Below the pieces are notes generated by a model, which had not been told where the DNA came from, did no database searches, and saw only the letters and a list, made by a program, of their open reading frames with translations. A DNA stretch of 64,000 nucleotides from contig CAYVGC010000006.1 of NCBI GenBank assembly GCA_964449815.1, forward strand, positions 8,817 to 72,816. Direction: 5' to 3'. The translations under genes were made by a program, and so were the position numbers. This document shows, piece by piece, positions 1 through 14,233 of the stretch; the stretch's first letter is position 1, and each line of letters starts with the position of its first letter. The stretch is from an uncultured Bifidobacteriaceae bacterium. Its GTDB lineage: Bacteria > Verrucomicrobiota > Verrucomicrobiia > Limisphaerales > UBA11358.

Positions 1-470
1 ATTGCATGGTGGCGAGTTAGATATTCCGTCAGGCGATTGTTGCTGCGCTGCCATAGCGGCTCGCCACCGACATCATTGTCAACCTCACGCAAACGGAGGT
101 CGAGTCCATTGGCACGTTTGGCCTGCTCCTTTGGGAACGAAGGCAGTCCCTTGTGGTGAGAATAGGCTGCTACCGCCGCTTCCGTGCATAGAGGAAACAG
201 ATGAGCCGATGCCGCATCCCAATGCAACAAGCCGTGATTGGTCTGACGGTTGTGGGCCAGCACATCCTGAAAAACATCGTCCAGTTTGCCAAGGTCGTGA
301 TAATGCGCGGCCATCTCCAGAACATCGAGAAACCCGTCACGCCATCTGGGACAGTGCGTTGTGGCTTCACGACCGAAGCGTATAGCCAGCGAGATGACAT
401 TACCAACATGGTAACGATACCACTGCTCAGGTGCGCCATTGCGGGCGCTATGGGCGAGCGGCTCGCTCAC
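1..470 (-). CDS. cas3: Cas3-type HD nuclease domain protein, N-terminal 156 codons only (partial, continues beyond window start)
   Basis: Manual minus-strand translation; this ORF is not in the supplied track. It reads VSEPLAHSARNGAPEQWYRYHVGNVISLAIRFG...LEMAAHYHDLGKLDDVFQDVL...NHGLLHWDAASAHL...AAYSHHKGLPSF, with no stop codon down to position 1. The LAHS / H-x-x-x-V / HDLGK / HH pattern is that of Cas3 HD domains. The GTG at 470-468 overlaps the cas7 TGA at 469-467. Confidence 0.7.
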   Translation of the reverse strand, partial: MSEPLAHSARNGAPEQWYRYHVGNVISLAIRFGREATTHCPRWRDGFLDVLEMAAHYHDLGKLDDVFQDVLAHNRQTNHGLLHWDAASAHLFPLCTEAAVAAYSHHKGLPSFPKEQAKRANGLDLRLREVDNDVGGEPLWQRSNNRLTEYLTRHHA

Positions 471-1459
471 AGCAATGCGTAGTCGGTATAAATGCCGACG
501 TCATTCCAAGTCAAAGACTTGTCGCCTTGTTTTCGCACGACGTTGCCTTTGATCTCATCCCAAGTCGGAATCTGGTAATCCGCGCGAGAAGTGCTTGGCT
601 TCTCTGGATCATCCCCTTTCCGGACAAGCTTGAGTGCATCCAGCAACGCGAAATCCGAAAACGAACCGAGCTGGTCTTTGTGCTCGACGGCATGGGCATG
701 GATTAACTCGACTTGGGTGCGGACTGTCGAAGGATTGTCGCGGTAAGCGTGTTTCAGCAAATTAAGCATCAGCCGCACATCGTCACCAGTGCAGCCGGTT
801 TTCCGAGCCTGCGTCGGGTTGACGAAGAATGGCACAGTGTAGATGCCGTGCTCGACAAACTTCATGGCCTGCGGAGCAAAACCGCGATCCTTATCTCCTT
901 CCACGCCTGGTTTGTTCGTCCAAGTCTCGAAGCGAACTCGGACGGGCGCAACAGAAACGCCAACTCCAAAGTGGGCAGCGCCGGCTCGAATAGCTCTGTC
1001 CATAATTTTCCTTCGATCCTCAACCGTAAGCTTCTTGCCGGTTTCCTTCTCCAGCTTCTTCACACCCTCGTCCACAGCTTCCTTTCCCTCCAAGAACGTG
1101 CTGCCGAACAACCGTGCATCCCAGTAATCCTGTTGAAAGCGCCCGTCTGCGAGCTTCTTGAAAATTTCTTCCCGATCACGGTCGCGCTTTTCGAGAATGT
1201 CGAACCGGGCGTCCTCACCCAATGAGAGTCGTTGCTTCATCTCCTGCCAGATCAGCCCCTCCTTGTCAGAGACCAATTCGCGCAATTTGCGTTTGACCGA
1301 AACGGGCGAAATCTCGCCGCGATCATCCGGGCGCTGGCGAGGAAAACCTGCGTTGTCTGGGTCGCCGTTGGGGTTTGAGTCACGGACCTCGATGACGAGG
1401 AGTCCGGTGATGCGGGGAATATTGGAGTCGAGCATGGTTTGTTTTTCTTTTGCGTTCAT
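467..1459 (-). CDS. cas7: CRISPR-associated Cas7, subtype I-C (Csd2 family)
   Basis: N-terminus GLLVIEVRDSNPNGDPDNAGFPRQRPDDRGEISPVSVKRKLRELV carries the Csd2/Cas7c NPNGDP signature. It sits directly downstream of the cas8c-like gene. Confidence 0.85.
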   Translation of the reverse strand: MNAKEKQTMLDSNIPRITGLLVIEVRDSNPNGDPDNAGFPRQRPDDRGEISPVSVKRKLRELVSDKEGLIWQEMKQRLSLGEDARFDILEKRDRDREEIFKKLADGRFQQDYWDARLFGSTFLEGKEAVDEGVKKLEKETGKKLTVEDRRKIMDRAIRAGAAHFGVGVSVAPVRVRFETWTNKPGVEGDKDRGFAPQAMKFVEHGIYTVPFFVNPTQARKTGCTGDDVRLMLNLLKHAYRDNPSTVRTQVELIHAHAVEHKDQLGSFSDFALLDALKLVRKGDDPEKPSTSRADYQIPTWDEIKGNVVRKQGDKSLTWNDVGIYTDYALL

Positions 1460-1464
1460 AATTT

Positions 1465-3708
1465 TTATTCGTTGTTGGTTTCAGAGGTTGCGGTTTCTTC
1501 GTCGCCGGACACGTCGGCAAGATAACCGAGCATGAGTTGAGCTTTGGAGATGTCGTCCAGATGTTCCACTTTGCCCAATTGCTCCAGATTTTTCGTAATA
1601 CTGGGTTCGCAATGGGACATCGCTTTGAGAATCCGGGTTGCCTCGCCAGCATCCTCGCCGCGATAGGTTGTAGCCCAGCCTTTGTAGGGCTGAATGCGCG
1701 TCGCCAACTGGCGGAGCGCACGCGCTGGATTATCCAGCGCGGTGTTGAAGACCGCATTGCCCAAGAGTTCCGTTGGCGCGCTGATCTTCCCTTTTTCGCG
1801 GTCTTTCTCCGACGTGCGAACCCATTTGCAGTAGTGAAAATGCAACTTGTCAGCGAGCGCCAGCAGTTGCCCGATTTGGTAGAGGGTGTCTTTCATAAAG
1901 GTTTCGTGGTGTTGATCCAACAGGTGAAGGAAAATGCCTGTGAGTGCGACCGCCTTGAGCACGTCGCGGCGAGCTTCTTTGCTCAAAGGCCGCAGTTTTT
2001 CGAGCCATTCGAGTTCTCTGTCTCGCCGCGTGACTTTGAAGATCGCCGCTCGCGCGAAAACGGGCCGCATCCGAACCAAGAGCGTGTTCAATCCGAACCG
2101 AGCTTTCCTGGTTTGGAGCGGTGGTCCAGCGAGGAAAATATCCAAAGCATCGTCCCGCGAGAGCGACACCACTAAGTAGGATGACAAACCTTCCTTGGCG
2201 TCTGTTTTCCACACTTGATTCAAGACGAGCGCCACGTCCATCGGTCCAGGCACAATGCGGAACTTCTCGATGCGTCGTTTATTCTCCGTGACCCGTGTCG
2301 TGAGTCTGACTGGCGGGCAATTCTTTGCTCCTGCCTGCCACGATTTGGCTGCGGCATTGAGTTCGTGAACGGTGAGGCTGCGGTTGAGTCGCAGTTGTTT
2401 GTTGGCTGCGTCCACCTCGCCGATAGCGAAAAGCCGGATCAAAGCGTCCGGGGTCTTGGCTTCACGAGCGTCGAGTGTTTCAAGGATCAGTCTTGTTTTC
2501 TCTCCGTAGTCTGCACCAATGAAGTCACGGGCCGTCTCACCGAACACATCCACGTAACGGTCATCTGCGAGCGGCTCATCTTCGAGATACGCAACGAGTA
2601 GCTGCTTTTTGTCGCCGGGCAGGAGACGGCAAGTTTTGCCAGAAGCCACTCGGCCACCCAAGGCGACCAATGCAGCGTCATCGCCGGCCAGAGTGAAGAT
2701 GGCGGCAGACAGGCGATGGACATTCTCCGGGGAGACAACGAAAGTGCGCGTGTCTCCCAGCCCGTAGCGGAAAAAGCACTTTGCTTCGGCGGTGTTGTTG
2801 GAAAACAACTTGGTGTTTCCAAGCACGGACAGTTTTGGTTCGGGAAACTTCGGAGGCAACGAGCACTCTTTCCCGGTGTAGGCATCGCGCACGAGAGTGG
2901 GCGGCTCGGGTGAAACGGCCTTCTTCTTACGCGTCGCCGGCGAAGTCTTGCCGCGAGTCTCCCTGTCGTATGCCGGCGGGTCGGTCTCCAGAAAAAACTT
3001 GTTCAACGCCCGACTGGTGCGCGAATCAGCAACCGGAAATGTGCCTAAATCCGCAACGGCGAGATCAAAATAAACAGGCAGTTTGCGGTCGGTAAAGAGC
3101 CATTCGGCGAACAAAACCGCATCGGCTGAGGTGATGTCTCCGTCTTGTTTTACGAGCAGGTTTACGAGTTGCTCGGTCAATGCTTGCGGTTCAAGTCGCG
3201 CAGCCGAGACAACCTCGACCAGCTTTTTGAACACAGCCAGTTCATCCCCTGCTTGCGCAAGATCCCCTTGAAGCCATCCGACCAATTCATGAAGGGATCG
3301 TTTTGCTTGCTGCTTCTGTTTGTCCAACAATTCAACCGGCTTGGAACGGGCAAATCGTTTTTTTGTGAAACGCTTGAGTGAAGCAACGTCTGGCAACTTG
3401 CGACGTAGCGTCTTGAATTGCTCAGTCAATTTCTTTTCCCACTTTTCGACCCCGGTAAATCGGAATCGCCGCAAGGGCGTAGGCAGATTGAAACCGGGGA
3501 ACGCCGCGCCTTCCGAACCGTGACACACACGCAAAAGACTCCCTGCGTCACGGATAACGGAGAGCCTCGTCGGCATCCCGTCCGCACTCAGTTGTATAAG
3601 CAGGACCTGATCGTTCTTGCCCATCGGATCGAGATGGGGATGCAGTTCGATTGGCCTTACACCGCACCGCTCCAGCGCAGTCGCCGCCAGATAAAGTTCA
3701 TTGAGCAT
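1465..3708 (-). CDS. cas8c: CRISPR-associated large subunit, Cas8c (Csd1)-like, 747 aa
   Basis: Lies between cas5c and cas7c. The central LFSNNTAEAKCFFRYGLGD...VSPENVHRLSAAIFTL and the C-terminal AQLMLGYLA resemble Csd1 features. I moved the start to the ATG at 3708 (MLNELYLAA), because the track ORF's N-terminal 105 codons overlap cas5. Confidence 0.65.
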   Translation of the reverse strand: MLNELYLAATALERCGVRPIELHPHLDPMGKNDQVLLIQLSADGMPTRLSVIRDAGSLLRVCHGSEGAAFPGFNLPTPLRRFRFTGVEKWEKKLTEQFKTLRRKLPDVASLKRFTKKRFARSKPVELLDKQKQQAKRSLHELVGWLQGDLAQAGDELAVFKKLVEVVSAARLEPQALTEQLVNLLVKQDGDITSADAVLFAEWLFTDRKLPVYFDLAVADLGTFPVADSRTSRALNKFFLETDPPAYDRETRGKTSPATRKKKAVSPEPPTLVRDAYTGKECSLPPKFPEPKLSVLGNTKLFSNNTAEAKCFFRYGLGDTRTFVVSPENVHRLSAAIFTLAGDDAALVALGGRVASGKTCRLLPGDKKQLLVAYLEDEPLADDRYVDVFGETARDFIGADYGEKTRLILETLDAREAKTPDALIRLFAIGEVDAANKQLRLNRSLTVHELNAAAKSWQAGAKNCPPVRLTTRVTENKRRIEKFRIVPGPMDVALVLNQVWKTDAKEGLSSYLVVSLSRDDALDIFLAGPPLQTRKARFGLNTLLVRMRPVFARAAIFKVTRRDRELEWLEKLRPLSKEARRDVLKAVALTGIFLHLLDQHHETFMKDTLYQIGQLLALADKLHFHYCKWVRTSEKDREKGKISAPTELLGNAVFNTALDNPARALRQLATRIQPYKGWATTYRGEDAGEATRILKAMSHCEPSITKNLEQLGKVEHLDDISKAQLMLGYLADVSGDEETATSETNNE

Positions 3709-4351
3709 GGTTGGCCCTCCCTTCTCGATATTCGAGGACACCGTTGCGAACTTGCTGCGGATAATATGTCTCACGACCGCGCTGGCCCTGTTGAGGCCGG
3801 TCGAACACTGTCCAAAGCATCGCGGGGATTTCGTGGTGTTCCGACTCGCACGGGCGCGTGCCGTCGCGAAACAAGCCAAAGTAATCCGGAACAAATTCCT
3901 TCCAGCCCAAGCAAGGCGTGTGAAACCAGCGGCCTCGTTCCAAACGCCGATTGAAGACGTCAGCGTAGGCATGCGGGGAGCAAGTGCCGTCAGGAGAATC
4001 CGCCGGCTCTCCATTCGGCCCACGATTCCAGTCTGCCTGCGCGTAAAGGCGATAGCGCACGTTTATCAGCACTTGAGCGAAGATTTGTTTTGCGGCGTTC
4101 TTCTTCATCGCACCGGTGTCGCGCAGCGGCCCGCCATAGTTGAAAGCATAAGAATGGAATTGCACAGGCGCGCAGATTTCACAGCGAGTCGGACACACGT
4201 TCACGGACTTCCAACGCACTACAGCCTCGAACAGTCCTTTGGCCGCGCTAAATGTTGGCGCTGCGTAGGAAACCGGGTTTGGCAGTGTGTCAGGTCGCGT
4301 CCAAAGCGCGGTCGGGCCGGAGATTTCGAGTTGAATGGGATATGGTTTCAT
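3698..4351 (-). CDS. cas5: CRISPR-associated Cas5, subtype I-C (Cas5d, pre-crRNA-processing type)
   Basis: LEISGPTALWTRPDT...PVSYAAPTFSAAKGLFEAVVRWKS and RRLERGRWFHTPCLGWKEFVPDYF match the Cas5d pattern (RR..G..f..P.LG.rEF). Confidence 0.8.
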   Translation of the reverse strand: MKPYPIQLEISGPTALWTRPDTLPNPVSYAAPTFSAAKGLFEAVVRWKSVNVCPTRCEICAPVQFHSYAFNYGGPLRDTGAMKKNAAKQIFAQVLINVRYRLYAQADWNRGPNGEPADSPDGTCSPHAYADVFNRRLERGRWFHTPCLGWKEFVPDYFGLFRDGTRPCESEHHEIPAMLWTVFDRPQQGQRGRETYYPQQVRNGVLEYREGRANHAQ

Positions 4352-4593
4352 AAATCATGCAGAAATCCGACCAGCTTGGCTTCATTGGCTATGTTAAATG
4401 GCGTGGTGAATTGCCCGGCAAGTTCGGCGACATTGGACAAATGCGTGGCCAGTGGCTGCCATTGGCCAGAAGATTCTGGTAGTGGTGTCCCATTTTCACC
4501 GACCGCAGTGTGCGCGTAGAATTTCACACGTTTCCCTTTAACCTGAAATTGAATGTGTCTTGGTAAATCGCCACCGTCCTGATGACAAGCCAA
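4348..4593 (-). pseudogene. Cas3 N-terminal stub, terminating inside the HD motif (probable deletion remnant)
   Basis: (R)VKFYAHTAVGENGTPLPESSGQWQPLATHLSNVAELAGQF...EAKLVGFLHDL-stop is a canonical Cas3 N-terminus up to the HD of HDxGK. The track start at 4593 is a TTG; a GTG at 4527 (VKFYAHT) is the more Cas3-like start. The stop TGA overlaps the cas5 ATG (TTATGA). Confidence 0.6.
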
Positions 4594-5473
4594 ATTTGTT
4601 ACAATTTTTCATATCTGCGAAAACCTTAACAAAGGGGGTAGGACAAATGCGGTCCAACCCTTAATCTATTTTCAGATTTTTTTGGCCGAAAATTTCACAG
4701 GCATTTTCCAAGTGGTTGACATCGCACGCCGGTTGAATGTGGCGGCAGACAACGGCCTTTCACCGCCGCTTCGCTTTGTTGAAATGCCGCTGACTGCCTT
4801 GCAGGTGATGGCCTGACTCCGTCTGGTTCAGATGGCTTCACTCCACTGCTCTCCGCGTGACCACGCGACCATTGCCCGCCTGATCACACTCCGTTTGGTT
4901 TCGTTCCGCCATCTGAATCCGGCGGAGACAGCCCGGGAGGGCGCGCGGCTTCGCCCGCCCAAACTCAAAGCAATAGGCCGCTAGGCTGCGCCACGGCCAA
5001 GACATCGGCATTAGCCGTGAGACCGGCCAGCTTTCGCTCATTCCGCTAATCTTCCGCTGCATTCCATTTCGCTCCAGAGCGCTACAATCACAAAACTGTC
5101 AGGCCTCACTGACCAAACCAATTTTAGTCTGACCACCGCCGGTTTGGTTTCCGCTGCGCTCCACCCAAACCAACGGGCGTCAGAGCCGGCAAGATTTGTG
5201 CCTTCGGCGACTCTGCGAGGCCAAGAGAGTTTTGGTTGGTGTTTTTGACATGGCACGTTTTGTTGATAAGCTGGGGCCGTCAGGGTCTCACCGTAAGCCG
5301 CTTGCTGCTCCGCCATCTTTTTCAAGTTTTTTAATTCCCGTTGTCACGGGGCGCTTTTTTCCCGGCGACGCACAGGGCATGGGCCACGCCAGCGCCCCGG
5401 CTATCGGGTAACGCCGAAACTTTCGCTGTCATGCCCCATGCACGCCGGAAAAAAACCGAGGTCAGTTCAAAAA

Positions 5474-5926
5474 ATGGCTCCGCGAGGGATGAAGCAAGCG
5501 GCATACGGCGAGACACGGACGGCGATCATCAAAAAAAAGCTTATGAAAAACAAAATATCAATTGAAGCAGCGGCTCCAGCAAACGCCAGCCAGCCATCAT
5601 CATTCAAGGCGGCTAAACAAACCGGTTTTGTCAGGCATTGCGCCAATCGCCGGTTGCCCACGGAAAAAGTCTTGAATTGCTTGCGAACGCAGTTGCCGAG
5701 TCAGTATGAATTGGCGGAGGTGGTCGGCAAATGGGTTTGGTTGGACGTTTCGCCCGCCCGCAAGCCCGGTCTGGCCAGTGTGCTTTGGACTTTGGGCTTC
5801 CATTGGAACCAGCGGCGCGGTGTCTGGCAGCATCCGTGCGGCAGGTTTGACCCGCTTGGCAGCCATCCCACCGACCCCCGCGCCAAGTATCGCTGCTATT
5901 TTCCCGCCGACATGCAGCCCGCGTGA
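5474..5926 (+). CDS. Hypothetical protein with Trp-rich C-terminal motif, possibly mobile-element associated
   Basis: C-terminal ELAEVVGKWVWLDVSPARKPGLASVLWTLGFHWNQRRGVWQHPCG looks protein-like and conserved, and recalls small plasmid/phage-borne domains (from memory, unverified). The start could be 5438 or 5474. Confidence 0.45.
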   Translation: MAPRGMKQAAYGETRTAIIKKKLMKNKISIEAAAPANASQPSSFKAAKQTGFVRHCANRRLPTEKVLNCLRTQLPSQYELAEVVGKWVWLDVSPARKPGLASVLWTLGFHWNQRRGVWQHPCGRFDPLGSHPTDPRAKYRCYFPADMQPA

Positions 5927-6109
5927 ACCAAAAACCGCCATGAACATTTCACCCATTATGGCACTGGCACTGTCAGTGAAACTGTCAGTCAGGGCTAACG
6001 CCGATAGCCGAAAATTCTGGCGGATTAACCCGAATAGTCTTTAATTTCCCCAACGATTTGCTAAATTCCATTTATCTGAATCAATGCAACAGACTGTGCC
6101 CATCTGTGG

Positions 6110-6763
6110 CTAAAACAGTTTTGGCTCCGGCTGCTTGATCGGCGCGAAGCTTCTCCGGTGGATTGGACATGCGCCGAATTGCGCAATTGCCGCCAGATGC
6201 TTCGCCGTGCCGTAGCCTTTGTGCCCGGCAAAACCGTATTCGGGAAACTGCGCGTGAAATTCCAGCATCAGCCGGTCGCGCGTGACCTTGGCCAGCACGC
6301 TCGCGGCGGCGATGGAATAGCTCCGCGCATCGCCCTTAACGATGGCCGTCTGCGGCACACGCAGGGTTTTCACGGGGCGGCCGTCCACGAGCGCGTGCGG
6401 CGGCAGCGGATTCAATTTTGCCAGCGCATCGTTCATCGCGCGATGCGTGGCCTGCAAAATATTGATCTCGTCAATCACCGCCGCGTCCACCTCGGCGATG
6501 CCGAATTCGATTTCGCCGCAGGTGGTGATGAAGGCGAAAAACCTTTCACGCTGCGCGGCGGTGAGCTGCTTGGAATCGTTCAAGCTGGTGAGTTCAGCGG
6601 GCAGACCCGTTTTCGCCCAGCGCGGCGGCAGGATGGCGGCGGCGGCAACGACCGGCCCGGCGAGCGGCCCGCGTCCGGCCTCGTCCACGCCCGCGACGCG
6701 CGCGACGCCCTGCTGCCAGAGGGCGCGCTCGAATTCAAAACTGATGGGGAATTTAACGGGCAT
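6110..6763 (-). CDS. rnhB: Ribonuclease HII
   Basis: VAGVDEAGRGPLAGPVVAAA and DSKQLT motifs; typical length. Confidence 0.9.
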   Translation of the reverse strand: MPVKFPISFEFERALWQQGVARVAGVDEAGRGPLAGPVVAAAAILPPRWAKTGLPAELTSLNDSKQLTAAQRERFFAFITTCGEIEFGIAEVDAAVIDEINILQATHRAMNDALAKLNPLPPHALVDGRPVKTLRVPQTAIVKGDARSYSIAAASVLAKVTRDRLMLEFHAQFPEYGFAGHKGYGTAKHLAAIAQFGACPIHRRSFAPIKQPEPKLF

Positions 6764-6965
6764 GGAATCAACGCTGCGGAAATTGACAACTCAGGGAGTC
6801 GTTTGCGCCGGATTATTGGTTGAGGTTATGGCCATTAAATTTGTTCTTCCCGTTGATCATTTGTTTGCGGGCTTGAGCCTACCGCCTTTCCAAAACCTTG
6901 TCGCCACGATTTTCAGCACCATCGGCGCGGAGTTGCAGGCGAATGAAACGCCGCCGGCTGGGAAG

Positions 6966-8354
6966 TTACGGCGTTTTGAATGTCAGCTTGATCACGGTGG
7001 CGTAGGGATCAACCGTTTCCGGTCGGTCGAACGTGAGCGTGGTGACGTTGCCGGCGACATCGCTCGTGAGTTTCAGGCCCTCCAGTTTTGAATCCAGCAG
7101 CTCTGCTTTGTCAAATTCGCCGCGGGCAATTTTGACGGTCCGGGTCACGCCCGCCGCGGGCCAGGTGAGGACATGGAGGTAAATGCTGCGATCCTTCTTC
7201 GTCGCATAACAGTTGAAATCAGCCTGCGGTTCAATCACGCATTCCGGCGCGGGCGTGGTGCCGTAAATGGCTTCGCCGTTGACGTCGAGCCACACGCCGA
7301 TGGTGTTGAGCAGGGCGACGTGTTCGGCGGGAAATTCCCCGGTCGCCGTGGGGCCGACGTTGAGCACGAAGTTCCCGCCCTTGCTCGTGGAGTCAATCAG
7401 GTTGCGGATCAACACGGCGGCTGAACGATAATTCGTCGCGCCTTTGACCCAGCCCCAGTTGTCGTCGGCGGTGTCGGTCATCACCACTTCAAAGTAGCGG
7501 CTTTGGCGCGAGCCTTTCAGTTGGTTTTCCGGCGTGGCGTAATCGCCGTCGGTGGACGACGCTCCGCGTCCGCAACGGTCGTTGACCAGGACATTGGGGT
7601 TGAGCGCACGCAGGCAGGCATAAAGCTCCTTGGCGTGGTCGAGGTCGGTGGACCATTGGCCGTTCACATACCAGAAGTTGTCGAACCAGATCATCGGAAT
7701 GTCGCCATATTGCGTCATGAGTTCCTTGAGCTGGGCGAACATATAATCATGGTAGGAGGTAAATTTTGGATCCATCACCTCGGCGGCGCTCCAGTCGCCG
7801 ATGGAATAGTAGAGGCAGAAAGCGATGCCTTGACGGTGGCATTCATCCGCGAGTTCCCTGATGACGTCGTGCGCGAACGGCGTTGAATCCACGACATTGT
7901 AGCGCGTGGTGGCGGTGCGGAACATGGCAAACCCGTCGTGGTGCTTGGTGGTGACGATGACGTATTTCTGGCCCGCGCGCTTGATCAGGCTGACCCACTG
8001 GCGCGCATTGAAGTTGGTGGGGTTGAACGCGCCGCCGACCTCGGTCTGGTATTCCTTCCACGGAATCACCATGTGGCGCTCGCCGAGGCCCATGATTTGT
8101 TCCGCCGGATCATAAGGACCTTTTCCGTGATAATAACCACCGAGCTGGGAATAGAGTCCGAAATGGATGAACGCGCCAAACTTGGCGTCGCGGAACCATT
8201 TGCCGCGCGCGTCGTCAAGACAGCCGCGTTCCGCCCACACCCGCTCCTGAACGGTGTTCGTTGACGCCGGGGCGTCGGCGGCAACCGCCGTTGAACCTGA
8301 TTTCCAGACCGCCAGCAGGGCGGCCAGCAAAATCCAAAGTGAATTAAGTCTCAT
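6966..8354 (-). CDS. Alpha-L-fucosidase (GH29), secreted
   Basis: FGAFIHFGLYS, TTKHHDGFAMF and LYYSIGDW motifs. Signal-peptide-like start MRLNSLWILLAALLAV chosen at 8354. Confidence 0.8.
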   Translation of the reverse strand: MRLNSLWILLAALLAVWKSGSTAVAADAPASTNTVQERVWAERGCLDDARGKWFRDAKFGAFIHFGLYSQLGGYYHGKGPYDPAEQIMGLGERHMVIPWKEYQTEVGGAFNPTNFNARQWVSLIKRAGQKYVIVTTKHHDGFAMFRTATTRYNVVDSTPFAHDVIRELADECHRQGIAFCLYYSIGDWSAAEVMDPKFTSYHDYMFAQLKELMTQYGDIPMIWFDNFWYVNGQWSTDLDHAKELYACLRALNPNVLVNDRCGRGASSTDGDYATPENQLKGSRQSRYFEVVMTDTADDNWGWVKGATNYRSAAVLIRNLIDSTSKGGNFVLNVGPTATGEFPAEHVALLNTIGVWLDVNGEAIYGTTPAPECVIEPQADFNCYATKKDRSIYLHVLTWPAAGVTRTVKIARGEFDKAELLDSKLEGLKLTSDVAGNVTTLTFDRPETVDPYATVIKLTFKTP

Positions 8355-8783
8355 GCAAAAAGTATCCTTGGGGAAAAATGGTGTTGGCCAGGCCTTATAA
8401 ATTTTGAAAACCCCTGGCGGTTTTTGAACCAAACATCGTCAAAGCGGCGGCGGGTGCCGCCGGCTCTCACCAGAAAGATCACGGCTTTTTATTTTCTCAA
8501 CCTGCTCTGGCATCTCTGGTTCGCATGTCATTTTCAATAAGTTTACCGGCAGACCACCAGGCTGCCAACCTGAATCACGCCAAAACCAAACCGCCCCTTC
8601 AAGCTGTCCTGGCAGAGCAGCCACGGACGGAAAGAATAGCGCCGCATTTTTCGCCGGCCTAAATCCCAACAGCGACTTTTCGTTTGTCCGCGTGCGTTTT
8701 TGGCCGATTTTAAGCTGCATGAGTTTCCGCAATTGACATGGCCAGACTGGTTGTCATCATGAAAGGCGTTCCTGCGTCCATTC

Positions 8784-9257
8784 ATGTTTCCCATGCTCCA
8801 AAAAATCTCGAAAAAAAATATCGTCCTGCGCGGCGGCCGGTTTGCCATCGCCGCCTCCACCTACAATCCGCGTTATGTGGACGCGATGGTGCGCGCGGCA
8901 AAAGCTGAAATTCTCCGCGCCGGCGGCGCCGTCCAGATCGTCCGCGTGCCGGGCGCGTATGAAATCCCCGTCGTTGCCGCCCGGCTGGCGCGCGCAAAAA
9001 TTTTCTCCGGCATCATTTGCCTGGGCGTCATCCTGCGCGGCGCGACGACGCACGCCCAGCATATCGGCGAGGCTGTGAGCAACGCGCTGGTGCAAATCCA
9101 GATCCAGCATGAGGTGCCGGTCATCCACGAAGTGCTGCTGCTGGAAAACGAGCAGCAGGCGAAGGAACGCTGCCTGAGCCGGACGCACAATCGCGGCACG
9201 GAGGCCGCGCAGACGGCGTTGGCGATGGCGCGCGTGATGAAAAGTTTGCATGGCTGA
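8784..9257 (+). CDS. ribH: 6,7-dimethyl-8-ribityllumazine synthase
   Basis: FAIAASTYNPRYVDAMV...VPGAYEIPVVAARLA...IICLGVILRGATTHAQHI is a typical RibH core. Confidence 0.88.
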   Translation: MFPMLQKISKKNIVLRGGRFAIAASTYNPRYVDAMVRAAKAEILRAGGAVQIVRVPGAYEIPVVAARLARAKIFSGIICLGVILRGATTHAQHIGEAVSNALVQIQIQHEVPVIHEVLLLENEQQAKERCLSRTHNRGTEAAQTALAMARVMKSLHG

Positions 9258-9271
9258 TGTTTTGAGGCAGA

Positions 9272-9505
9272 TTGCGGCGGATGCCCTATCTGCCAATTGT
9301 CATCGTTCTGGCGTGCGCGGTTTTCTTCCACCGCGCGGCGGAGTTTGAGAATGAATCCACGCTGCTCTGGACCGGCCTGTCGGTTTTGATTTCAACTGTG
9401 ACGCTGTTCTATTTCCGGTGGGGGATTCTGGGAGCATTGCTTGGACAGGCCGGCCTGCTGGCAGGCATCACCATTTTCCGGCTGTGGCGCAGCCGCGACT
9501 TGTGA
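9272..9505 (+). CDS. Small hypothetical membrane protein
   Basis: 77 aa with 2-3 hydrophobic helices; no recognisable family. Confidence 0.35.
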   Translation: MRRMPYLPIVIVLACAVFFHRAAEFENESTLLWTGLSVLISTVTLFYFRWGILGALLGQAGLLAGITIFRLWRSRDL

Positions 9506-9570
9506 AACATTTTACAATCGGCTTGCCGGTGCTGCGGCCAGATGCTACTTTCCTTCCGCTGCTTGAGCTT

Positions 9571-10269
9571 ATGAAAAAATCTCTTTTGCTCCTTTTGCTG
9601 GGAGTTTTTGCCGCGCTGCAACCGGCCCGCGCGGGTGACATCACCGGCACCATCACCTTGAAAGGCACGCCGCCCGCCGAGCGCGAGTTGACCCCCATCA
9701 AGGACGACCCGAATTGCTCGGCCATGTATCCCGGCGCGCTGCCGACAACGCATTTTTACGTCGTCAGCTCCGGCGGCGGTCTGGCCGACGTGATTGTGTC
9801 GCTCAAAGGCATTTCGGGCAAATCCACCGGCGCGAGTGCGGCTCCGGTCGTGCTGGATCAGAAAGGCTGCCTGTATGTGCCGCAGATTCTCGCCATTCAA
9901 ACCGGCCAGAAAGTCATCGTGAAAAATTCCGACCCCTGCGTCCACAACGTCCACACCAAGCCGGCGGCCAACACCGAGGCCAACCAGGTGCAGATGCCCG
10001 GCGGCGCGGATCTGACCTTCACGTTCGACCAGCCGGAGCCGTTCCTGAAATTCCAGTGCGACGTGCATCCGTGGATGTTCGCCTGGGTCAGCGTGTTTGA
10101 TCATCCGTATTTCGCCGTGAGCGACAAGGACGGCAAGTTCACCATCAAGAACGTCCCGCCCGGCAAATACACGCTCGAAGCCGCGCACCGCAAGCTCGGC
10201 ACGCAAACCGCCGAAATCGAAGTGAAGGACGACGGCGCGGCGCAGAGCTTCGCCTTTGAAGTGAAATAA
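9571..10269 (+). CDS. Secreted cupredoxin-like / carboxypeptidase-regulatory-like domain protein
   Basis: Signal peptide MKKSLLLLLLGVFAALQPARA, then VKNSDPCVHNVH...FQCDVHPWM (a Cys/His/Met copper-site-like pattern) and a KDGKFTIKNVPPGKYTLEA beta-sandwich. It directly precedes the cox genes. Confidence 0.5.
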   Translation: MKKSLLLLLLGVFAALQPARAGDITGTITLKGTPPAERELTPIKDDPNCSAMYPGALPTTHFYVVSSGGGLADVIVSLKGISGKSTGASAAPVVLDQKGCLYVPQILAIQTGQKVIVKNSDPCVHNVHTKPAANTEANQVQMPGGADLTFTFDQPEPFLKFQCDVHPWMFAWVSVFDHPYFAVSDKDGKFTIKNVPPGKYTLEAAHRKLGTQTAEIEVKDDGAAQSFAFEVK

Positions 10270-10320
10270 ATTTTCCGCCCGCCAGCGACCGCTGCGCGAA
10301 AAATCCGCAGCGGTCTTTTT

Positions 10321-11316
10321 TTGAACATGAACAACAAATACCATCCCGCGCTGTTTTGGTTCGCCGTGCTCAACGTCGTTGCCACAACCTTGCTCATCGG
10401 TCTCGGCGGTCTCGTCACCAGCCACGAGGCCGGCATGTCCGTGCCAGACTGGCCGACCACCTATGGCTACAACATGTTCCTGTTTCCCGTGGACAAGTGG
10501 GTCGGCGGCATTTTCTACGAGCATTCGCACCGCCTGCTCGCCTCGCTGGTCGGCCTGCTGACCACGGTTCTGGCCGTCTGGCTCTGGCTCAAAGATCCGC
10601 GCAAATGGCTGCACTGGCTGGGCATCGCGGCCTTTTTGCTGGTCATCGCGCAGGGCGTTCTCGGCGGCCTCCGCGTCCGCTGGCAGATGGACTGGCTCGG
10701 CGTCCCGCACGGCGCGGTCGCGCAAACTTTTCTGGTGCTCACCTGCGCCATCGCCCTGTTCACCAGCCGCTGGTGGCAGAATTCGGAAACCGAAAAACAA
10801 ATTCCCGTTCCGCGCGGCCTGCGCCGCCATGTGCTTTACGTCACGCTTTTGATTTTTGTCCAGCTTGTCATTGCCGCGACGATGCGGCATCAGCACGCCG
10901 GCCTGGCCATCACGGATTTCCCGCTCGCCTACGGGAAAATCTGGCCGGCCACGACGCCGGAAGCCATCGCAAGCTACAACGCCCATCGTCCGCCCGGCAC
11001 CATCGGCAATCCCATCACGGCGTTGCAAGTGAACCTGCAAATGATCCACCGCCTCGTCGCCTACGCCATTCTTCTCGGCGTCGCGGCGGCGGCGATGCTC
11101 GCGCGGAAAAAACTCGGCGGCGGCGACTGGCTGACCAGATTCGCCTTTTTCTGGCTGGGGCTGCTCGCGCTGCAAATCATCCTCGGCGCGGCGACCATCT
11201 GGTCGAACAAGGCGGCGGACGTGGCGACCGGCCACGTCATGGCCGGCGCGCTGGCGCTGCTCGCCGGTTCGCTGTGGTGGCTCGTGGCCGCGCGGCGCAC
11301 GCGGCTGGCGGAATAA
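10321..11316 (+). CDS. ctaA: Heme A synthase (COX15/CtaA family)
   Basis: LGGLVTSHEAGMSVPDWPTTYGYNMFLFP...YEHSHRLLAS; polytopic membrane protein. Confidence 0.85.
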   Translation: MNMNNKYHPALFWFAVLNVVATTLLIGLGGLVTSHEAGMSVPDWPTTYGYNMFLFPVDKWVGGIFYEHSHRLLASLVGLLTTVLAVWLWLKDPRKWLHWLGIAAFLLVIAQGVLGGLRVRWQMDWLGVPHGAVAQTFLVLTCAIALFTSRWWQNSETEKQIPVPRGLRRHVLYVTLLIFVQLVIAATMRHQHAGLAITDFPLAYGKIWPATTPEAIASYNAHRPPGTIGNPITALQVNLQMIHRLVAYAILLGVAAAAMLARKKLGGGDWLTRFAFFWLGLLALQIILGAATIWSNKAADVATGHVMAGALALLAGSLWWLVAARRTRLAE

Positions 11317-11448
11317 AGGCTTTGCCGACGCAACCCAGGGAATATCCCGGCCAAAGTTTCCGGCAAACAGCATTGACAGATTTTGCCATCGCATGACAAA
11401 ATAGGGTGAATTAGGCGTGGTTCTAACCACAAAAATTTTACCAGAAGA

Positions 11449-12354
11449 ATGAAATTATCGGCGACGGCGGCATTAAATTCAACCGAGGATTTTGACAAAA
11501 GCTGGACGGCGGTCTTCGCGGACCTCGTCAAGGCGCGGCTCACCGCGCTCGTGCTGCTCACCACCTTCGTCGGGTTTTATCTCGGCGAAACTGGCAGCGT
11601 GAACTGCCTGCTGATGTTTCACGCGCTGTCCGGCACGGCGCTGGTCGCGGCCGGCGCGGCCGCGTTGAACCAACTGCTTGAACGCGATTACGACGCCAGG
11701 ATGCGCCGCACGGCCAGCCGCCCGCTGCCGTCGGGCCGTTTGCAGCCGGCGGCAGTTGCCATTTTCGGCGGTGTTTGTTCGGTCGCCGGTTTGATTTATC
11801 TCGCCGTGGCGGTCAACCCGCTCACCAGCGTCGTCGGCGCGGTGACTTCCATCAGCTATCTTTTCATTTACACGCCGCTGAAGCGCGTGACCTGGGCCAA
11901 CACGCTCGTCGGCGCGATTCCCGGCGCGCTGCCGCCGCTCATGGGCTGGACCGCCGCGCGCAACGAATTGAGCGGCGAAGGCTGGACGCTGTTTGCGCTG
12001 GTGGCGTTCTGGCAGATCCCGCATTTCATGGCCATTGCGTGGCTTTACCGCGAGGAATACGCCAAGGCCGGTTTCATCATGCTGCCCAACATTGACGCCG
12101 ACGGCAGCCGCACGGCGCAGCACGCCGTCGGCAACACGGTCGCGCTGTTCATCGTGAGCCTCTGCCCGTTTTTGCTGAAAATGAACGGTCAAATTTACCT
12201 CGCGACGGCGATGATCTTGGGTGCGGGATATTTTTGGTGCGCGGTGCGGTTTGCGCGGCAACTGACCCCGGCGCGCGCCCGGCAGCTTTTTCTGGCCTCG
12301 ATCATTTACCTGCCGCTGCTGCTGGCGGCGATGGTTTGCGACAAGGTGAAATGA
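11449..12354 (+). CDS. ctaB: Protoheme IX farnesyltransferase (heme O synthase)
   Basis: UbiA-family motifs (NQLLERDYDARMRRTASRPLPSG) and its position next to ctaA/ctaD. Confidence 0.88.
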   Translation: MKLSATAALNSTEDFDKSWTAVFADLVKARLTALVLLTTFVGFYLGETGSVNCLLMFHALSGTALVAAGAAALNQLLERDYDARMRRTASRPLPSGRLQPAAVAIFGGVCSVAGLIYLAVAVNPLTSVVGAVTSISYLFIYTPLKRVTWANTLVGAIPGALPPLMGWTAARNELSGEGWTLFALVAFWQIPHFMAIAWLYREEYAKAGFIMLPNIDADGSRTAQHAVGNTVALFIVSLCPFLLKMNGQIYLATAMILGAGYFWCAVRFARQLTPARARQLFLASIIYLPLLLAAMVCDKVK

Positions 12355-12358
12355 ATTT

Positions 12359-14233
12359 ATGGAAGCGACGGTTCAACAATTTCCGCCATATCGCGAATCC
12401 GAACTGCGGCATGGCCACGGCGAGCACGAGCACCACGAGCCGGGCTTCTGGAACAAATACATTTTCTCGACCGACCACAAGGTCATCGGCATCCAATACG
12501 GATTCACCGCGCTGTGCTTCATGCAGTTCGGATTTTTCCTGATGATGCTGATGCGCTGGCAGATTGCGCATCCGGGCGTGCCGGTGCCGCTCGTCGGGCC
12601 GCTGCTGGAAAAAATTCTCGGCACGCCGGCGGCGGGCGGCGCAATTTCACCCGACCTTTACAACTCCTTCGGCGCGATGCACGGGACGATCATGGTCTTC
12701 CTTGGCGTGGTGCCGCTGGCGTTCGCGGCGTTCGGCAACTACGTTGTGCCGCTGATGATCGGCGCGCCGGACATGTGTTTCCCGCGCATCAACATGGCAA
12801 GCTACCATGCGTTTTTCCTCGGCGGCGTGGTGATGCTGGTGAGCTTTTTCATCCCCGGCGGCGCGGCGCAGGCGGGCTGGACTTCGTATTCGCCGCTGGC
12901 TACCACCATTCCAACCAACGGCCAGGCGTTTTGGATCATCGGCATGGTGCTGCTCATCACCTCGTCCCTGCTCGGCGCGGTAAATTTCATCGCCACCATC
13001 ATCCAGCTTCGCGCGCCCGGCATGACGTGGATGCGCCTGCCGTTTTTCGTCTGGGCGCAGTTCGTGACCGCCTTCATTTTGCTGCTCGCGTTTCCGCCGT
13101 TGGAAGCCGCCGGCGTTTTGCAGTTGATGGACAACCTCGCACACACGAGTTTTTTCCTGCCAACCGGTCTTGCGGTGGGCGGCCAGCTTGCCGACCGGAG
13201 CGGCGGCGGCAGTCCGCTGCTGTGGCAGCACCTGTTCTGGTTCCTCGGCCACCCGGAAGTTTACGTCTTGATTCTGCCGGCGATGGGCATCGTCGGTGAA
13301 GTCATCGCCAACAACACGCGCAAGCCGCTGTGGGGCTACAAATCGCTCGTCTATTCGGTGCTGTTCGTCGGTTTCCTGTCGTTCATCGTCTGGGCGCACC
13401 ACATGTATCTGACCGGCATGGGCCAGAAAATCGCCACGTTTTTCCAGGCCACGACGATGATCATCTCGATCCCGTCCGTCATCATTTTGACGTGCATGTT
13501 CCTGTCGCTTTGGGGCGGCTCCATCCGCATCAACACGCCGATGCTGTTCGCTCTTGGCTTCCTGCCGATGTTCGGCATCGGCGGGTTGACGGGCCTGCCG
13601 CTGGGCCTGGCGGCGAGCGATTTGTATCTGCATGACACCTATTACATCATCGCGCATTTCCATTACGTCGTCGCGCCGGGAACTATCTTCGCGCTGTTCG
13701 CCGGCGTGTATTTCTGGTTCCCGAAAATGACCGGACGCAAATTGAATGAATTCTGGGGCCGCGTGCATTTCTGGTGTTCGCTCGTCTTCATGAACCTCGT
13801 GTTCATGCCCATGTTCGCGCAGGGCATCAAGGGCATGTTGCGCCGCATGAGCGACGGCGCGGTGAACTACTCCGCCGCGCGCGTGCCGAACGCCATTGAC
13901 GCGCTGCCCGGCACCGTGATGGAACTCAACCAGTGGATTCTCTGGGCGGCCATCGCGCTGGGCCTCGCGCAGATTCCGTTCATCATCAATTTATTTTGGA
14001 GCATCAGCCACGGCGAAAAAGTGAACAGCGACAATCCGTGGAGCGCGACCACGCTCGACTGGCAGACACCCACGCCGCCGCCGCACGGAAATTTCGCGCA
14101 CGAACCGCATGTCGTCCGCGGGCCTTACGAATACAGCGCGCCCGGCCACGCCACCGATTTCACGCCGCAAAACGAAGCTGAAGAAAACCGGAAAGCGGAA
14201 AGCGGAAAGCGGAAAGAAGAACCGGCATGCTAA
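12359..14233 (+). CDS. ctaD: Cytochrome c oxidase subunit I
   Basis: Canonical heme-copper oxidase subunit I sequence (WFLGHPEVYVLILP, HFHYV). The Lys/Glu-rich C-terminal tail is encoded by the heptamer repeats. Confidence 0.95.
   Translation: MEATVQQFPPYRESELRHGHGEHEHHEPGFWNKYIFSTDHKVIGIQYGFTALCFMQFGFFLMMLMRWQIAHPGVPVPLVGPLLEKILGTPAAGGAISPDLYNSFGAMHGTIMVFLGVVPLAFAAFGNYVVPLMIGAPDMCFPRINMASYHAFFLGGVVMLVSFFIPGGAAQAGWTSYSPLATTIPTNGQAFWIIGMVLLITSSLLGAVNFIATIIQLRAPGMTWMRLPFFVWAQFVTAFILLLAFPPLEAAGVLQLMDNLAHTSFFLPTGLAVGGQLADRSGGGSPLLWQHLFWFLGHPEVYVLILPAMGIVGEVIANNTRKPLWGYKSLVYSVLFVGFLSFIVWAHHMYLTGMGQKIATFFQATTMIISIPSVIILTCMFLSLWGGSIRINTPMLFALGFLPMFGIGGLTGLPLGLAASDLYLHDTYYIIAHFHYVVAPGTIFALFAGVYFWFPKMTGRKLNEFWGRVHFWCSLVFMNLVFMPMFAQGIKGMLRRMSDGAVNYSAARVPNAIDALPGTVMELNQWILWAAIALGLAQIPFIINLFWSISHGEKVNSDNPWSATTLDWQTPTPPPHGNFAHEPHVVRGPYEYSAPGHATDFTPQNEAEENRKAESGKRKEEPAC

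Follow-up and report, generated by a model that had tools for sequence, protein, structure and literature searches.

A cas3 gene downstream of cas7 in a divergent type I-C-like CRISPR locus of Verrucomicrobiota

Composition of the locus and the frame at the window edge

The DNA analyzed here (the window) is a stretch of 64,000 nucleotides, positions 8817-72816 of contig C6, and its left end falls inside a CRISPR-Cas locus that was followed in positions 1-14000 of the same contig in the same assembly (L002). The features of the locus are listed below.

Window 4348-4527, minus strand: stub of 59 codons, a cas3 relic; its stop codon overlaps the cas5 ATG (ATGA)
Window 3698-4351, minus strand: cas5 (Cas5c-like, 217 aa); Pfam Cas_Cas5d 6e-9, PADLOC Cas5c 1e-24
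Window 1465-3708 (start probable), minus strand: cas8c (large subunit); PADLOC Cas8c 8e-105, profile positions 1-656 of 658
Window 467-1459, minus strand: cas7 (type I-C-like, 330 aa); Pfam Cas_Cas7 2e-39, PADLOC Cas7b and Cas7c 9e-40 and 3e-30
Window 470 to L002 7001 (C6:7001-9286), minus strand: cas3, 761 aa; matched by Pfam, PADLOC and TIGR01596
L002 6947-6762, minus strand: putative antitoxin, 61 aa
L002 6777-6469, minus strand: ParE-family toxin; Pfam 1.8e-20
L002 6530-5859, minus strand: cas4; Pfam and PADLOC
L002 5743-4502, minus strand: cas1; Pfam and PADLOC
L002 4493-4203, minus strand: cas2; Pfam and PADLOC
L002 4015-2976: CRISPR array, 15 identical 37-nt repeats

The order of the locus is stub-cas5-cas8c-cas7-cas3-(antitoxin/ParE)-cas4-cas1-cas2-CRISPR array. 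This is not the canonical I-C order cas3-cas5-cas8c-cas7-cas4-cas1-cas2, as cas3 is found between cas7 and cas4. Judged from the sequences, the locus is a type I-C system by gene content, and I-C profiles are the best matches of its Cas5, Cas1, Cas2 and Cas4. Because the NCBIfam models for Cas5c (43.8, cut-off 85) and Cas7c (98.5, cut-off 182) both score under their curated cut-offs, the system is regarded as a divergent branch of I-C. Every sizeable open reading frame (ORF) from the stub to the array could be assigned, and the locus-level search found no Cas6 among them; Cas5 would act as the processor of pre-crRNA in this system. The cas7 gene is 91% identical to that of a related locus, L021. 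For cas8c, the longest ORF begins with a GTG at 4023 and overlaps cas5 by 326 nt. Since the Cas8c profile aligns from residue 106 of this ORF onward, translation probably begins near 3708, which leaves an 11-nt overlap with the end of cas5.

On the cas strand the repeat of the array is GTCGCCCCGGTCAATTGGCCGGGGCGCGGATTGAAAC (37 nt). It has the form GTCGC, stem-loop, ATTGAAAC, which we take to resemble that of I-C repeats, and the Rfam CRISPR-DR9 model matches this strand with 26-30 bits, under its gathering score of 45. The spacers are mostly unique. At L002 3692-3833, two successive repeat-spacer units are 100% identical, and the duplicated spacer is AT-rich (TTTATTTTTACGTTCAAAAACCATTGATTTTATT, plus strand).

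The part of cas3 that lies in the window was first noticed as an unlisted frame. The first-pass annotation had reported 156 stop-free codons on the minus strand from a GTG at 470, and translation of window positions 470-3 recovers the same 156 residues without a stop. With open ends switched on, the ORF lister gives the frame as '3..470 - 156aa GTG,3open'; it was missing from the ORF track because ORFs that leave the window are unlisted by default. The gap in the track thus stems from where the window ends and says nothing on the gene itself. The three track ORFs covering this stretch (2-385+, 170-439- and 201-482+), which had been dismissed as implausible other frames, are present and gave zero family matches in a Pfam search. 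Beyond the edge the frame continues uninterrupted to C6:7001 (L002 7001-9286, minus strand) for a total of 761 codons, with 1,816 bases of the gene to the left of the window. The 156 codons inside the window take in the greater part of the HD domain, which occupies about residues 7-190 of the full protein. A chance frame can be dismissed because these 761 codons are open in the assembly and are conserved from end to end in many genomes.

The GTG start codon of cas3 (470-468) shares bases with the TGA stop codon of cas7 (469-467), the junction reading ctGTGAgc with an overlap of 4 nt. In a DNA alignment of 11 junctions, the CTGTGA sequence is common to the window, L021 and L019. In most other relatives the junction is longer by a 15-nt insert, yet an in-frame GTG still sits on the cas7 stop, and most of the 11 junctions have such a GTG. 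The same 4-nt overlap appears in the gene calls of L019, L037, L038, L039 and L040. By these comparisons the stop/start overlap is a conserved feature of the family. It is unlikely that the true start of cas3 lies elsewhere, which would leave neither overlap nor coupling with cas7. Such a displaced start would be in keeping with the lack of an evident Shine-Dalgarno-like sequence upstream of the GTG and with the gene callers' choice, in two relatives (L015 and L017), of a cas3 start 8-14 nt past the cas7 stop. However, sequence conservation begins at residue 3 (EPLAHSA), and in the 16-member alignment the homologues called at 759-761 amino acids start at the same position as the GTG, in addition to the called overlaps and to the GTG retained in relatives with the insert. 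Promoter and terminator scans of window positions 1-5300 gave nothing above shuffled expectation. The overlap itself is therefore confirmed in relatives, and translational coupling of cas3 to cas7, which the first-pass annotation had put forward together with it, may be its consequence.

The stub upstream of cas5 and the toxin-antitoxin slot

The stub encodes 59 amino acids, VKFYAHTAVGENGTPLPESSGQWQPLATHLSNVAELAGQFTTPFNIANEAKLVGFLHDL followed by a stop codon, and ends in LHDL directly after an HD dyad. Over its whole length it resembles the Cas3 of a canonical-order locus of the same bacterial order (L005; 57% identity, residues 8-63, E 2e-19). By this similarity the stub is a relic of a canonical type I-C cas3, of which it preserves the opening 59 codons. 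The possibility that it is a piece or duplicate of the locus's own cas3 was rejected, as the two have no significant similarity.

Homologous stubs with 51-85% identity are found upstream of cas5 in L015, L021 (genome G042), G012 and G046. In G047 a stub homologue is present and cas5 itself has been lost. Among the other relatives examined, stubs are absent or degraded, and a 57-aa ORF upstream of cas5 in L039 was rejected as a homologue. The stub remains open at constant length in relatives in which it is only 51-57% identical and the remaining operon is about 90% identical. This suggests either that it has been kept as a leader ORF and promoter region of cas5 or that recombination has swapped it.

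Two relatives display further rearrangements in this region. In L021 (5376-6130), whose operon is about 90% identical to that of the window, the stub ends with HDLGKSDF and a stop. After it comes a second, truncated cas5 of 185 amino acids, which is 66% identical to the Cas5 of the window and resembles the cas5 of the L017 subclade; a complete cas5-cas8c-cas7-cas3 set then follows. This arrangement resembles the trace that a swap of effector modules between subclades would leave. In L017 (about 4860-5800; also in L018), a PIN/FitA-like toxin-antitoxin pair lies upstream of cas5 and has a copy of the stub's opening codons ('IKLM[D/E][F/Y]YAHT...') on either side, which suggests that the cassette was inserted with target duplication.

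A second site of variation is the boundary between cas3 and cas4. In L002 (6469-6947, minus strand), the 61-aa putative antitoxin and the ParE-family toxin occupy this slot in the orientation of the cas genes. The same slot holds a reversed ParE in L015, PemK/MazF in L017, an AbiEii-like gene in L019, a Phd antitoxin with small ORFs in L039 and two small ORFs in L038; L037 and L040 have nothing in it.

A decayed copy of the locus is found in L035 (G047:C1:405000-410000) and in L027. The stub of this copy is 85% identical to that of the window. The copy has no cas5 and, of cas8c, just a 3' piece; its cas7 is intact, and a ParE/antitoxin pair lies upstream of the stub. Its cas3 is interrupted after about 165 residues; the part with codons 264-761 is found 50 kb away, on the opposite strand.

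The predicted Cas3 protein

The frame at the window edge almost certainly begins a complete cas3 gene, whose 761-aa product consists of an HD nuclease, an SF2 helicase and a C-terminal region and would be the effector nuclease-helicase of this type I-C-like locus. With the full protein, the Pfam models DEAD (35.7 bits, cut-off 26), Helicase_C (31.9, cut-off 23.5), ResIII (33.6, cut-off 22.5) and Cas3-like_C_2 (51.3 bits, cut-off 27) all pass. The best PADLOC model is Cas3c (5e-99, 331 bits, residues 5-712), followed by Cas3b models (1.5e-73). Among the NCBIfam models, TIGR01596 (cas3_HD) scores 49.3 bits over residues 20-193, above its curated cut-off of 43.45, and TIGR01587 (cas3_core) scores 81.5 bits, under its cut-off of 102.45. 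This shortfall counts against the assignment, as do the sub-cut-off Cas5c and Cas7c scores, a Cas3c score lower than that of canonical-order proteins, and the unusual gene order. A profile built from 16 family members matches solved type I-C Cas3 structures in the PDB over residues 25-594 (8zns, 3e-52; 8g9u, 5e-50), with the HDLGK and CLVDAD motifs in register with the solved chains of NlaCas3, the Cas3 of Neisseria lactamica. A single-sequence search against the PDB finds the same two entries with the helicase part alone (residues 177-592, about 1e-36).

The residues expected of both active sites are retained. In an alignment of 16 homologues at 59-93% identity, ten residues of the HD region are invariant in 16 of 16 members: H7, H21, H58, D59, H83, H105, H106, D186, D188 and H189. 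The same picture emerges from a second alignment, which covers the HD region of 16 loci. In the helicase region, the Walker A motif GTGKT (267-271) has invariant G267, G269, K270 and T271 and a nearly invariant T268; the DEAH box (384-387) has invariant D384, E385 and H387 and a nearly invariant A386; and in motif VI, QIAGRASR (571-578), Q571, A573, G574, R575 and R578 are invariant. In two close homologues, P0003 and P0114, 18 additional residues stand behind AAHHHR in the RecA1 region (alignment columns 357-374; GERIEIDEKTGVERVVST in P0003); the Cas3 of the window and most of the family do not have them.

In NlaCas3, the ligands of the two metals in the active site are H8, H25, H52, D53, H118 and H119 (PMC11417383). 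The contexts of these ligands occur in the same order in the Cas3 of the window: AHS (H7), a histidine of helix 1 (H21), HDLGK (H58, D59) and HHxGL (H105, H106). The HD dyad (H58, D59) is aligned directly to NlaCas3 by the family profile, and by motif context H7, H21, H105 and H106 would be the counterparts of H8, H25, H118 and H119. The stub upstream of cas5 has counterparts of the first four NlaCas3 ligands and lacks the His-His pair; because it ends before this pair, it is unable to form an HD site. The earlier proposals that the edge frame carries an HD signature of the Cas3 type, and that this gene rather than the stub is the nuclease of the locus, are both upheld.

Structure prediction, which had been proposed alongside profile searches of the full protein, was carried out and contributed nothing. 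AlphaFold2 with the alignment of 16 close relatives gave a mean pLDDT of 56.7 and a pTM of 0.35 for the full protein, and 63.4 (pLDDT) for the HD domain (residues 1-200) with the close-relative alignment. A Foldseek search of the full model against the PDB returned generic SF2/DEAD-box helicases alone (TM about 0.2), and the HD-domain model had no match with E < 1, with a few HD-superfamily hydrolases among its insignificant hits. These models are poor and carry no weight, and the evidence from sequence profiles is decisive without them. The assignment to Cas3 rests on profiles, motifs and genomic context, from which metal-dependent nuclease and ATP-dependent 3'-5' helicase activities can be predicted.

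It is very unlikely that this cas3 looks intact and is in fact non-functional or decaying in a locus heading for loss. The decayed copy in the close relative G047 (L035), with its missing cas5, its remnant of cas8c and its broken cas3, speaks for this reading, as do the toxin-antitoxin modules and the relic stub, which show past rearrangement of the locus. However, in the locus of the window no cas gene is shortened and no catalytic residue is lost, and the array consists of 15 identical repeats with spacers that are mostly unique. It is extremely improbable that the gene encodes a stand-alone HD nuclease (Cas3'') or a new HD fusion whose helicase is encoded elsewhere or absent: the window shows the HD part alone, and the 156-aa fragment matches HD-only profiles (PADLOC Cas3 effector_G3, 2e-12), but the same frame runs without a stop into the helicase core and the C-terminal region, and the homologues have the same length and architecture. 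The probability of a non-Cas HD phosphohydrolase that merely adjoins cas7 is close to nil, since the generic Pfam HD model, at 20.8 bits on the 156-aa fragment (cut-off 22), is outweighed by Cas3-specific profiles, the locus context and the match to solved type I-C Cas3. Whether a helicase or another domain followed the HD part had been left to the sequence left of the window, and that sequence settles it as HD plus SF2 helicase, in an uninterrupted frame with the HD residues kept and with Cas3 as its family. A false lead is thereby removed: the locus is not without a nuclease, and the gene is neither HD-only nor a novel fusion.

Gene order, relatives and proposed function

A protein search recovered more than 120 clusters of homologues with 59-91% identity to the complete Cas3, almost all of 752-784 amino acids (about 760), and most of these homologues begin where the window's Cas3 does. 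Where named, they come from metagenome-assembled genomes of Verrucomicrobiota, and many are already labelled 'CRISPR-associated endonuclease/helicase Cas3' (JGI) or Cas3 (NCBI). The gene is thus an ordinary cas3 of a family that public annotation already names as such.

The position of cas3 after cas7 is a fixed trait of this family, as this order was found in nine of nine relatives inspected (L015, L017, L019, L021, L037-L040 and G012). Other families of the same bacterial order have Cas3 homologues of about 31% identity encoded directly before cas5 (G031, G027, G033, G040, G011 and G025). These canonical-order I-C loci (for example, L005 from G031) share with the window the gene set cas3, cas5, cas8c and cas7, and Cas3c and Cas5c are likewise their best-matching profiles. 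The two groups differ in how strongly they match. For instance, canonical-order Cas3 proteins of this order score 650-702 bits with Cas3c, in contrast to 331 bits for the Cas3 of the window, and with Pfam Cas_Cas5d the canonical-order loci reach 83-144 bits, compared with 34-50 in the window's clade. Given profile scores of about half the canonical values and an order shared among relatives, the system of the window belongs to a divergent and well-populated branch of I-C whose gene order is fixed and distinct. A literature text search for this order (cas8c-cas7-cas3 and similar) found no papers, and a broader search gave nothing relevant.

In the classification of Makarova et al., the type I-B order is cas6-cas8b-cas7-cas5-cas3-cas4-cas1-cas2. 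As in type I-B, cas3 of the window lies past the Cascade genes and directly ahead of cas4-cas1-cas2, and Cas3b profiles are its second-best matches. Unlike type I-B, the locus has no cas6, the large subunit matches Cas8c (8e-105), and cas5 heads the Cascade genes instead of following cas7. Among the closest known counterparts is NlaCas3 of the type I-C system of N. lactamica (PDB 8ZNS alone, 8G9U bound to Cascade; PMC11417383), which has the same HD domain, two RecA-like domains and C-terminal domain. The counterparts of its six metal ligands are invariant in the window's Cas3 family, whereas outside the motifs the HD domain is strongly diverged. The proteins also differ in length (761 amino acids, compared with 854 in the 8ZNS chain and 771 in the 8G9U chain) and in gene position, as the gene of the window stands after cas7 and not before cas5.

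By analogy with the type I-C paradigm and the work on NlaCas3, Cas5, Cas8c and Cas7 would form Cascade with the crRNA and open an R-loop on a matching target flanked by a PAM. Cascade would then bring in the predicted Cas3 via Cas8c. The HD site would nick and degrade the displaced strand, and the helicase would move in the 3'-to-5' direction on ATP, reeling in the DNA. At the level of expression, ribosomes ending cas7 may restart at the cas3 GTG by means of the stop/start overlap, which would tie the synthesis of Cas3 to that of Cascade.

A more far-reaching reading, which we consider doubtful, is that the clade is a distinct and undescribed I-C sub-variant. In such a sub-variant, a xenologous cas3 with a divergent HD domain would have settled after cas7, the original cas3 would persist, reduced to a leader ORF of 59 codons that is coupled to cas5, toxin-antitoxin modules that stabilize the locus would have landed recurrently between cas3 and cas4, and the conserved overlap would tie Cas3 to Cascade synthesis. 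On the preferred reading of a divergent I-C branch with an ordinary cas3, the gene order, the relic and the toxin-antitoxin cassettes are variations on well-known themes. The finding is mildly useful for CRISPR biology, as it describes a populous I-C branch in Verrucomicrobiota in which cas3 is placed behind cas7, the two sharing a conserved overlap of 4 nt, and in which a relic of the canonical cas3 is accompanied by frequent toxin-antitoxin cassettes between cas3 and cas4.
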